A stretch of 64,000 nt of DNA from the IMG/VR virus record IMGVR_UViG_3300037067_007554, positions 1-64,000 of that record; one strand, given 5' to 3'. Under the pieces are notes generated by a model that was not told the origin of the DNA, made no database searches, and saw only the letters and a program-made list of their open reading frames with translations. The stretch comes from a virus (Duplodnaviria > Caudoviricetes). The translations under genes and the position numbers were made by a program. Shown here in pieces: positions 37,001-53,568 of this stretch; the stretch's first letter is position 1, and each line of letters starts with the position of its first letter.

Positions 37001-37092
37001 TGGCCCCGGCTGGTAGGCGGGACTTCACGCCGTTGCGTTTTGCCGGCGGAATACCGATGCCGAGAGTTGAGGTTCGATTCCTCATTGGGCCA
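37001..37092 (+). ncRNA. tRNA-like element (non-canonical or degenerate)
   Basis: T arm TGAGG-TTCGATT-CCTCA (37068-37084); acceptor-like pairing TGGCCCCG/TTGGGCCA with one mismatch; no canonical D or anticodon arm and no encoded CCA. Confidence 0.45.
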
Positions 37093-37178
37093 CTTGTGTA
37101 GAGATGCCCACTCCCTGTGGCGGCCGGGGAGAGGGTCTTAGGTCCATGCCGCCAGCCCCCTACACAAGAGGTGTGCCT

Positions 37179-51187: not shown

Positions 51188-51376
51188 GTGGCTATTCTCG
51201 ATGGCAAACACGTACCGCCAGAAAACATTCGACCCTAGCGGCACCGACTCGTTGGCAAGTATCGGCCCCCTGAGCCGCCAATGGGGATGCCGCCAGCAAT
51301 TGCCATTCCCCTCTACCATGCCGGCGTGTACGACGAGGCAGTCTACGTCAGCCAGACCAAGGAGCGAGTAAAATGA
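51188..51376 (+). pseudogene. ORF with in-frame TAG at 51236-51238
   Basis: AAGGAG RBS + GTG 51188; the same frame ends in an ATGA overlap with the next gene. Confidence 0.4.
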
Positions 51377-51639
51377 GTCCTAGACGACCCGACCCGCCGA
51401 GCCCAGGGCAAGAGTACATTGGCAGGCAGGGAATGTACGCGATACGTTCCCGCTATCCCGACCAGCAGACCGGCGACGAAGAGTTGATCTTTCCAGTCCG
51501 CGTTACGGCGGTGAAGAAACGGTTCGGGCGGCTGTACTTCTTCATCACGCCAGTCGGCGGGGAGAATCACTGGTGGGTCGAGGACAAGATGGTGAAGTTC
51601 TCCTGTTCGGACGAGCCTTCGACCAACGGGAAGGAATAG
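51373..51639 (+). CDS. hypothetical protein (SH3/KOW-like beta pattern)
   Basis: YIGRQG..FPVRVTAVKKRFGRLYFFITPVGG...WV. Confidence 0.7.
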   Translation: MSPRRPDPPSPGQEYIGRQGMYAIRSRYPDQQTGDEELIFPVRVTAVKKRFGRLYFFITPVGGENHWWVEDKMVKFSCSDEPSTNGKE

Positions 51640-51658
51640 GGCAATCCTTTGGAAGAAT

Positions 51659-51898
51659 GATTCAAGAGCGAGGAAGTTGGGTAGGCTAAAACACGGCGAC
51701 CGGCCAAGTCTGCAAATCGCTCAGAGAGCCGCTGGGCGAGAAACGGACGCAGTACGCCACCGGCTTGTTAATCCGGCAGTCCCAACTTTCTCGCTCTTGA
51801 ATCAATCGCCCGGCTGCACTCGGGGAACTAAGGCCCTTAAAGGCTGATTGGCGCTACACACCTCGCGTCTCAGCTACCGTGCAGTCGGGCGTTTTTTT
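51659..51898 (+). ncRNA. candidate structured RNA / attenuator leader
   Basis: 23-bp stem 51659-51681/51781-51803 (one G-U) enclosing a multibranch domain; 13-bp stem 51807-51819/51879-51891 followed by T7. Confidence 0.6.
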
Positions 51899-51908
51899 GG
51901 ACCATCCG

Positions 51909-52130
51909 ATGCCAACTACACAAACATCCGCTGACCTCATGCCGCCAAAGGTGCCTCCTCTAGTTGCTACCAACTGGCCAGAAGACATCCAACGACTGGG
52001 CGATGCGATTGCAAAGTTGTCGGTCGAAAAGGCTCAAGAGTTGAAGGCGTATTTGGAAAGTAAGAAGATCGTGACGCCGGCAAGGGTGACCGAATCATGC
52101 AACGGGAAAACAGCCCCATCCAACTCGTAA
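51909..52130 (+). CDS. ribosomal protein bL12 (L7/L12) N-terminal-domain-like protein lacking the C-terminal domain
   Basis: WPEDIQRLGDAIAKLSVEKAQELKAYLE matches the recalled planctomycete bL12 NTD pattern I..LGD.I..L....A.EL..YL; ATG at 51909 or 51939. Confidence 0.65.
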   Translation: MPTTQTSADLMPPKVPPLVATNWPEDIQRLGDAIAKLSVEKAQELKAYLESKKIVTPARVTESCNGKTAPSNS

Positions 52131-52423
52131 AGTCTTCCATCAAGGCCCTCAAGCAGGAAGGCTTCAAGGAGGACTCTGGCACGTACAGGGCCCGCCTTCT
52201 GTATGCTCGAACCGTTGTGAAGAAAGACGATAGCGTGGAGATTCAATTTGCCCAACGGTCAACCTTCGACAGGTGGACTAACAGCACAAACTTCCGCGTG
52301 ACCATTGCAGCAAATTACAGAGGCCCCGTCAATCTCAAGCCCGCTGTGACACTAGCTCGAAGAATCTGTCGGTCCGGTGTCTTCGACTTTAACACCTACT
52401 TTCACACCATCGACCTTAGCTGA
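52097..52423 (+). CDS. hypothetical protein
   Basis: Operon-tiling ORF. Confidence 0.55.
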   Translation: MQRENSPIQLVKSSIKALKQEGFKEDSGTYRARLLYARTVVKKDDSVEIQFAQRSTFDRWTNSTNFRVTIAANYRGPVNLKPAVTLARRICRSGVFDFNTYFHTIDLS

Positions 52424-52467
52424 ATCAATTCAATTGAATCAGCCCTCCGACCCTTACGGAGCCCCTC

Positions 52468-53568
52468 ATGACGGTGCAGCCCCTCGTCAATTACAACCGC
52501 ATCGAGCCAACGGACGCCTCCCCGCTGCTGGCCCTGCCTTTCGGCGACTTCTCCGGCGCTCTCTATCAGCCGTTCATCGCGTACTCCGTGTCCTATCGCC
52601 ACACCGCCGCCCAGCGAACGCTCCCCTGGATTCGCAGCATGAACCGCGATACCTTTCCCATGACGACCGAGGAGACGGTCCGCTGGCTGAAGGAAAAGCA
52701 CAACGTTCACGCCAACGGCAAAGAAATCGTCCGATGGGAGGAGGCCGCATTGAACTGGGTTCGCCCGATAGGGACAACGGCCTGGCCGTACATCCGCGTG
52801 TCGGAACGCAGGTCAAGTTTCAGTGGAATCTCCCTAGAGACGCAGCGAGCGGAAATTGTCCGGTACTACGCCAGACGATTCACGGACGGGACGATCGGCA
52901 TGGGGCCTGTATTCTCCGACCCGTCCGTCAGTGCCTCCAAGACAGAGTTCCGCCATCGACGCGGCGGCATGGCCCTATCGCTGCTGATACGACCCGGAGA
53001 TCACATCCTTTTTGCGAGACTGGACCGTGGGCTGCGGTCTGTTTACGATGCCTCCGTGTGCTGGCACGAATACTGGCAACCAAAGAACATCACGCCCCAC
53101 TTTCTCGACCTTGGCATCGACCTGACGACGGCCCATGGGCAACTGGTCTTCAACATCATGGTAGCCGTTGCCCAGAGCGAGAGCGATATCAAGTCAGAGC
53201 GGATGAAGGGCATCGTCAAGACGATGAAGGAAAACCACCGTCCCATGGCCTACGCTCCACTGGGCTGGAAGAAACAGGGGCAGGGCAAGAACGCTCGCCT
53301 GGTAAAGGATGAGCCCACACGGGTCATCATGCGGGAAATTTACCGCCTTCGCGAAGAGGAGCACAAGTCCTTCTGGCAGATCAGCGACATCATCGAGCAA
53401 CGCATCTGCCAGTTCGCGGGTCGCCTCTACACGAAGTCGGCATGGCAACCTAGGCTGTGGAACTACAAGCGGTGCGAGAAGGCATGGTTCAGGTGGGGCG
53501 AGATTCTTAGGGATGAGTACCTGCGAGTCCCTGCGTCAGAGAAACCGCCGGCGATAGAGGGGAGTTGA
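52468..53568 (+). CDS. serine recombinase (resolvase/invertase catalytic domain + recombinase-like C-terminus) with an N-terminal extension of about 105 aa
   Basis: YIRVS catalytic motif, SLETQ, FSDPSVSA, RLDRGLRS, IDLTTAHGQLVFNIMVAVAQSE, APLGW. Confidence 0.88.
   Translation: MTVQPLVNYNRIEPTDASPLLALPFGDFSGALYQPFIAYSVSYRHTAAQRTLPWIRSMNRDTFPMTTEETVRWLKEKHNVHANGKEIVRWEEAALNWVRPIGTTAWPYIRVSERRSSFSGISLETQRAEIVRYYARRFTDGTIGMGPVFSDPSVSASKTEFRHRRGGMALSLLIRPGDHILFARLDRGLRSVYDASVCWHEYWQPKNITPHFLDLGIDLTTAHGQLVFNIMVAVAQSESDIKSERMKGIVKTMKENHRPMAYAPLGWKKQGQGKNARLVKDEPTRVIMREIYRLREEEHKSFWQISDIIEQRICQFAGRLYTKSAWQPRLWNYKRCEKAWFRWGEILRDEYLRVPASEKPPAIEGS

Follow-up and report, generated by a model that had tools for sequence, protein, structure and literature searches.

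Ribosomal proteins encoded by viruses have been described before, and they are commonly regarded as replacements for the host copies. In the stalk protein bL12, two copies of the N-terminal domain (NTD; residues 1-37 in E. coli), each a helical hairpin, pair into an antiparallel four-helix bundle, and each such dimer docks on one 10-residue site of helix alpha8 of uL10; the C-terminal domain recruits the translational GTPases (PMC3299993; PMC10931766). Loss of a single bL12 dimer doubles the generation time of E. coli and slows the steps that depend on IF2 and EF-G (PMC3299993). The virus-encoded bL12s reported by Mizuno et al. in 2019 were found with a model of the Ribosomal_L12 C-terminal domain; they retain the residues for contact with uL11, EF-G and EF-Tu and often lie inside larger proteins of proteobacterial phages (PMC6375957).

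The gene described here encodes an N-terminal-only phage bL12, which is the converse of these published phage bL12s and falls within the known virus-encoded homologues of ribosomal proteins. It lies in a window, meaning the whole stretch of DNA that was analysed, which covers positions 1 to 64,000 of an IMG/VR virus record of 89.5 kb with a GC content of about 58%. Full-text literature searches on the subject retrieved no account of a phage bL12 that consists of the N-terminal part only.

The gene and its surroundings

The record belongs to a tailed phage whose terminase, portal and major head protein genes are on the minus strand, and the gene comes at the end of a series of small ORFs on the plus strand. 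Its 73 codons run from an ATG at position 51909 to a TAA at 52128-52130 and give a 73-aa product (Table 1), and a second in-frame ATG at 51939 would give a 63-aa product. The earlier note had described an ORF of these two possible lengths without a bL12 C-terminal domain, and its coordinates and translation agree with ours; the peptide that it quoted, WPEDIQRLGD...YLESK, corresponds to residues 23-52 and is followed by 21 residues that contain neither a hinge nor a bL12 C-terminal domain. Of the two start codons, the ATG at 51909 appears the likelier, because two homologues (P0001 and P0002) align from residue 1 across the stretch that precedes the second ATG. GC content at the three codon positions in the non-overlapped core of the ORF was 0.56/0.44/0.56, which fits coding sequence, and the GC3 of 0.56 is lower than the 0.65-0.8 that is usual for the phage genes. 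Together with the homologues described below, the locus is a real gene that is conserved and phage-borne. Contigs from four runs were identical across 51300-52700, leaving no variants from which to judge selection. The runs listed as containing the region are DNA runs only, from the groundwater and landfill metagenomes in which the phage DNA was found, and no RNA run is listed among them.

Table 1. Features of the gene and of its predicted product (positions are those of the window; residues are counted from the ATG at 51909).
Feature	Position	Strand	Evidence or remark
Gene for the putative headless bL12	51909..52130	+	73 aa, stop included; ORF check and 11 homologues (alignment A3)
Motif PPxxPPxVAT (residues 12-21)	51942..51971	+	P16 invariant, P13 and P17 at least 90% conserved (12 sequences)
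Region homologous to the bL12 NTD (residues 22-59)	51972..52085	+	hhalign, BLASTP, Pfam
Predicted helix 1 (residues 24-36)	51978..52016	+	AlphaFold2; holds invariant G31 and I34, near-invariant D32 and A35
Predicted helix 2 (residues 39-51)	52023..52061	+	AlphaFold2; holds invariant L45 and Y48, near-invariant L49
Variable tail (residues 60-73)	52086..52127	+	No conservation among homologues; pLDDT 54-57

The gene shares its final 34 nt with the ORF that follows (52097-52423, plus strand), which is read in the -1 frame. A frameshift fusion of the two was considered and rejected: the 34-nt overlap holds no slippery site of the form X XXY YYZ, and the homologues stop as short proteins beside unrelated genes. 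The overlapping ORF itself, of 108 codons, has a codon-position GC content that fits coding sequence, and its confident ESM Atlas model (pTM 0.75) was closest to a DUF4304-like fold (TM 0.62); it had no match in Pfam, PHROGs or NCBIfam and no link to the ribosome. About 340 nt downstream of the gene is a serine recombinase/integrase gene (52468-53568, plus strand; Resolvase, E 3.3e-16; phrog_95, E 1.2e-28), suggesting that the phage is temperate or carries an invertase.

Directly upstream of the gene, the plus strand at 51658-51898 is predicted to form two tandem, very stable RNA domains, with a minimum free energy of -121.9 kcal/mol for 51640-51910 and a z score of -6.7 relative to shuffled sequences. 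The second domain has a closing stem of ~12 bp followed by U7 (T7 in the DNA), and its end is 10 nt before the ATG. The 51658-51898 region had no match in Rfam at gathering scores, and no sigma-70-like promoter was found for the gene. The RNA could terminate transcription of the early genes upstream, or it could be a structured RNA in its own right. A repeated motif, RTGCCGCCA, occurs in 21 copies between 36368 and 53921, all on the plus strand (about 2 expected; maximum of 6 in 100 shuffles); the copy at 51939-51947 encodes M11-P12-P13 of the small protein, in which P13 is at least 90% conserved across the family. Elsewhere in the window, ARAGORN reported an odd, 91-nt tRNA-like gene at 37003-37093 (plus strand) whose anticodon has four bases (gcgt) and to which no amino acid is assigned, and this region had no Rfam tRNA match at the gathering score.

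Small homologues and their genomic contexts

A phmmer search of 1.84 billion cluster representatives retrieved 8 small homologues of 56-122 aa (E 4e-7 to 1e-3), and a profile search of a 5.8-billion-protein database added three more, bringing the total to 11 homologues of 50-122 aa. The alignment of the ORF with these proteins (A3, 12 sequences) gave the consensus ..L.PP.KPP.VAT...DD.IRELGDKIAALS.E.A.EL..YL. Residues M1, P16, G31, I34, L45, and Y48 are invariant in all 12 sequences, and P13, P17, D32, A35, L37, and L49 are conserved in at least 90% of them. Judged from this alignment, conservation of the family acts at the protein level. A word-based homologue search with the single protein returned no match, as did a search confined to longer homologues of 215-2000 aa; PHROGs and NCBIfam contain no family for the ORF, and no relatives were found in the viral contig collection or in the GenBank phage collection. 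Of the 33 IMG/VR loci that matched a degenerate DNA pattern encoding LGDKIAAL, none was a family member.

Ahead of the hairpin, the family carries the motif PPxxPPxVAT, which contains two Pro-Pro pairs, has no counterpart in our alignment of the phage hairpin with bL12s (A2) and is therefore family-specific. AlphaFold modelled it as coil with a pLDDT of about 80. Possible roles for the motif are to provide extra affinity for the stalk or to serve as a docking peptide for another factor. Because this N-terminal extension is conserved, the protein is a derived, specialised one; it is neither a simple truncation of bL12 nor a truncated pseudogene. The earlier note had recognized the part that is homologous to the NTD, which stands, and had passed over the conserved extension.

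All six genomic contexts of family genes that were read consisted of phage-like, dense, co-directional arrays of small ORFs, most of which had no Pfam match. Some also contained HNH endonucleases, nonulosonic-acid synthesis genes or a deoxyribosyltransferase, and none of the six had a ribosomal operon around the family gene. Within the 6-kb flanks, the family gene was the only gene common to this phage and three other contigs that carry homologues, so that it has been retained independently in phage backgrounds that are unrelated. At two loci with the same homologue, P0007 (L146, 10001-10562; L147, 576-1137), the family gene shares its 3' end with an overlapping HNH endonuclease gene, and at a third (L148, 9499-10180) a weak HNH match lies two genes upstream of it. 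This proximity may reflect mobility linked to homing endonucleases, or just the abundance of HNH genes in these phages.

Relationship to the N-terminal domain of bL12

The earlier note had proposed a significant match to the Pfam family Ribosomal_L12_N (PF16320) as a test of the homology. The single sequence did not give one: residues 27-52 of the ORF matched positions 2-27 of the 48-position profile with an E of 0.04 and 14 bits, under the gathering cut-off of 25 bits, and it was only at the level of profiles that the relationship became significant. Five of nine family members had a weak match to Ribosomal_L12_N (best E 0.0015), and no other Pfam family was matched by more than one of the nine. 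When the family profile was run against 5.8 billion proteins, all 18 matches beyond the family members were bL12s, 17 of them full-length (database-wide E 2.8e-3 to 0.7); 16 of the 18 carried both PF16320 and PF00542, one (P0029) carried PF00542 only, and one, a 64-aa fragment, carried PF16320 only. Comparison of A3 with a set of 17 bL12s (A4) using hhalign gave a probability of 97.4% and an E of 1.4e-11 over 38 columns, statistics that are somewhat inflated because the bL12 set was picked from the family profile's own matches; residues 22-59 of the ORF were paired with residues 5-42 of bL12. By BLASTP, the ORF product shared 19 of 36 residues (53%) with the bL12 P0021, and identity to individual bL12 N-termini was 39-54%.

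In alignment A2, the phage hairpin falls on the extreme N-terminus of the bL12s (..ELGDxIAGLTxxxAxELxxYLxxxYGIEPAA), and the preceding W.PD(I/V) residues are also common to some of them. In 17 bL12s, the hairpin has eight invariant positions (G, D, I, A, L, A, L, and Y), whose counterparts in the ORF are G31, D32, I34, A35, L37, A42, L45, and Y48. Seven of these show no or almost no variation across the phage family; the eighth, A42, is alanine in about 75% of members.

We also searched 401 Planctomycetota genomes in six frames with the family profile. Matches were obtained in 87 genomes, with exactly one match in each, and 84 of the 87 spanned the hairpin part of the profile within open frames of 130-267 aa. 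Each of the 20 loci that were fetched proved to be rplL with rplJ immediately upstream, and with rplA also present where it was looked for. Singling out one gene per genome in this manner is not what a generic helical motif would give. The three matches outside rplL, in open frames of ~631 aa in high-GC genomes, were set aside as spurious; one was inspected and had no clean gene at that place. No cellular, N-terminal-only paralogue of bL12 was detected among the 401 genomes.

Among PDB sequences, the best match of the family profile was 9zem_A, a designed repeat protein (HeliScrew4) with repeated DKIAALTPEQ units, and within the shared motif, IAALTPEQ..L is a generic helix-capping pattern. HMM searches at E <= 10 recovered no bacterial bL12 from this set, nor did phmmer, although the set includes those of E. 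coli, Thermus and Thermotoga among others, implying that the sequence likeness is specific to the N-terminal type of this planctomycete lineage. Mitochondrial bL12 was recovered at E 0.2-0.8 with the 9-sequence profile only.

Using the family alignment, AlphaFold2 predicted a two-helix hairpin with a pLDDT of about 85 in the helices and 72 overall. An exhaustive VIA-align comparison of the model with 48,161 PDB chains ranked the N-terminal fragment of Thermotoga maritima L12 first (1dd3_C; 32 of 32 residues superposed on ORF residues 25-56 with an rmsd of 2.1 A, 41% identity and a Z of 2.6), the N-terminal dimer of E. coli L7 third (1rqt; 37 of 37 residues, 27% identity), and mitochondrial bL12 fifth. 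The Z scores of 2.5-2.6 are low and are tied with those of unrelated helical hairpins, so that the ranking corroborates the homology to bL12 without proving it. The helical hairpin anticipated by the earlier note is thus borne out as a prediction and by its best PDB match, at this low Z. Foldseek found nothing in the PDB at E <= 0.001, and its top rows were 30- and 46-residue chains of the mitoribosome 6zsb (an entry that contains bL12m) at E 3-9; a shape search of the ESM Atlas gave no match, and a feature search gave leads below 0.9 only. A complex prediction with two copies of the ORF product and residues 140-195 of a planctomycete uL10 (from genome G253) returned a score of 0.07 and a mark of 0.32, which speaks neither for nor against the interaction.

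As a whole, the family profile, the hhalign comparison and the specificity for rplL in planctomycete genomes uphold the earlier proposal that the protein is a stand-alone homologue of the NTD through which bL12 dimerises and binds uL10, and the sequence support for this is strong at the level of the family. The planctomycete-type signature (LGD.IA.L....A.EL..YL) was likewise correct, as the nearest bL12s are from Planctomycetota. Relatives of the best-scoring bL12 (P0012) at 60-84% identity were found only in this phylum and mostly in Pirellulaceae. In addition, one planctomycete genome (G386) contains, in syntenic arrangement on one contig, genes for a portal, a terminase and a major capsid protein that are related to those of the phage (contig C22, 210358-219922; L152-L155), with E of 1.5e-102, 5e-44, and 5.4e-76, respectively, and 28-38% identity. 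We regard this module as a candidate prophage relative; the family profile matched G386 in one place only, on a different contig (C28). The syntenic module and the planctomycete-type N-terminus suggest that the host of the phage is probably a planctomycete. No relatives of the terminase were found in the genome contig, viral contig or GenBank phage collections.

A putative headless subunit of the ribosomal stalk

A protein that retains only the anchor of bL12 may most simply be read as a headless stalk subunit, and the phage protein probably acts on the ribosomal stalk of the host. In the explanation that we favour, it is a domain-minimal derivative of planctomycete-type bL12 that has kept the hairpin, lost the hinge and the C-terminal domain, and gained the proline-rich motif. 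During infection it would enter the host stalk, either by placing homodimers on uL10 alpha8 or by forming heterodimers with host bL12, and by either route the stalk would be left with fewer factor-recruiting heads, altering the recruitment of IF2, EF-Tu, EF-G and RF3. Dimerisation, binding to uL10 and to host bL12, and an effect on translation are all inferred here from the likeness to bL12. Since the phage needs host translation, a protein that did nothing but poison the stalk would have to act partially, at set times or selectively. We assign a probability of roughly 0.55 to this main explanation as a whole, i.e., to the homology and the stalk-directed mechanism jointly. A more specific version, which we put forward tentatively, is that phages of Planctomycetota make a dedicated headless subunit that outcompetes host bL12 on uL10, aided by PPxxPPxVAT, and that they thereby tune the number of heads per ribosome. 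If true, such tuning would be a previously undescribed viral way to slow or skew host translation, or to dampen host responses that depend on the stalk.

The same features can be read differently. The hairpin might have been taken from bL12 and put to new use as a general dimerisation or adaptor module that serves a partner outside the ribosome, leaving the stalk unaffected; this partner might be a second protein of the phage, or one of the host to which PPxxPPxVAT binds. Consistent with this, the most distinctive conserved element of the family is its Pro-Pro motifs, which bL12 lacks, the ..YGIEPAA segment that follows helix 2 in bL12 has not been kept, and the sequence has diverged below the Pfam threshold. 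Nevertheless, retention of seven of the eight bL12-invariant hairpin positions, and of the eighth in about three quarters of members, is what would be expected if the same dimer and uL10 interfaces were being maintained, and the contexts read share no conserved neighbour gene that might encode a partner. We consider reuse as an adaptor unlikely.

An action away from the ribosome, on the free pool of uL10-(bL12)n, seems rather improbable to us. Heterodimers, or capping of uL10, would then disturb the autogenous control of rplJL or the assembly of the stalk. The L10(L12)4 complex does autoregulate translation of the rplJ-rplL mRNA (PMC10931766), and the homology to the dimerisation and uL10-binding domain fits such an action as well as it fits the main explanation. 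Yet bL12 dimers are loosely bound and variable in number on ribosomes (PMC3299993), making direct incorporation equally feasible, and an effect on the free pool overlaps the main explanation and does not exclude it. Lastly, a GC3 below that of the phage's other genes, the terminator-like hairpin directly upstream and the want of any RNA run containing the region would suit an inert remnant of a captured rplL, or a chance ORF, with no function. This is very hard to reconcile with 11 homologues on unrelated phage contigs, all of them NTD-only, all with the same N-terminal motif and conserved at the protein level, or with the absence of any trace of a C-terminal domain from the virus record, and we give it almost no credence.

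The stalk-directed explanation matters because bL12 is the one multi-copy, exchangeable ribosomal protein, of which an anchor-only copy would, if the explanation is true, be a natural dominant-negative subunit. The number of bL12 dimers affects the rates of initiation and elongation (PMC3299993), and a phage that changed it would have graded control over host translation. Such a protein would also offer, in 73 residues, a natural tool with which to probe the stoichiometry of the stalk.

Among cellular proteins, the closest counterpart is the NTD of Planctomycetota bL12 (rplL, PF16320; e.g., in the Pirellulaceae and genomes G253 and G347), which has the same hairpin and the signature ..LGDxIAxL(T/S)xxxAxELxxYL. 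In contrast to it, the phage protein lacks the hinge, the C-terminal domain and the rplJL operon context, is borne by a phage, and adds the conserved N-terminal PPxxPPxVAT. Whereas cellular bL12 continues after helix 2 with a conserved ..YGIEPAA, conservation in the phage family ends at ..YL. The bL12 C-terminal domain (PF00542) was not found anywhere in the 89.5-kb virus record by a search that matched 10 of 14 control genomes; no uL10 gene was found in the record, and the neighbours of the gene are phage ORFs and the serine recombinase rather than rplJ. With respect to the solved NTDs (1dd3_C, 1rqt, and mitochondrial bL12m in 6gaw and 6zsb), the model superposes on 1dd3_C and 1rqt, but the Z is low, sequence HMMs give no link to the bacterial chains, and the dimer and uL10 contacts of the phage protein are putative. 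The E. coli strain JE105 resembles the proposed situation in having a stalk with fewer heads, from which slower IF2- and EF-G-dependent steps and slower growth would be expected here too; in that strain, however, a binding site on uL10 was deleted (PMC3299993), whereas in the infected host the sites would stay filled, by headless subunits. The bL12s of Mizuno et al. share with the present family their derivation, as phage genes, from the stalk bL12, as well as the idea of swapping exchangeable ribosomal proteins in host ribosomes (PMC6375957). Theirs are defined by the head, and the present family is the converse: anchor only, headless and of the planctomycete type.
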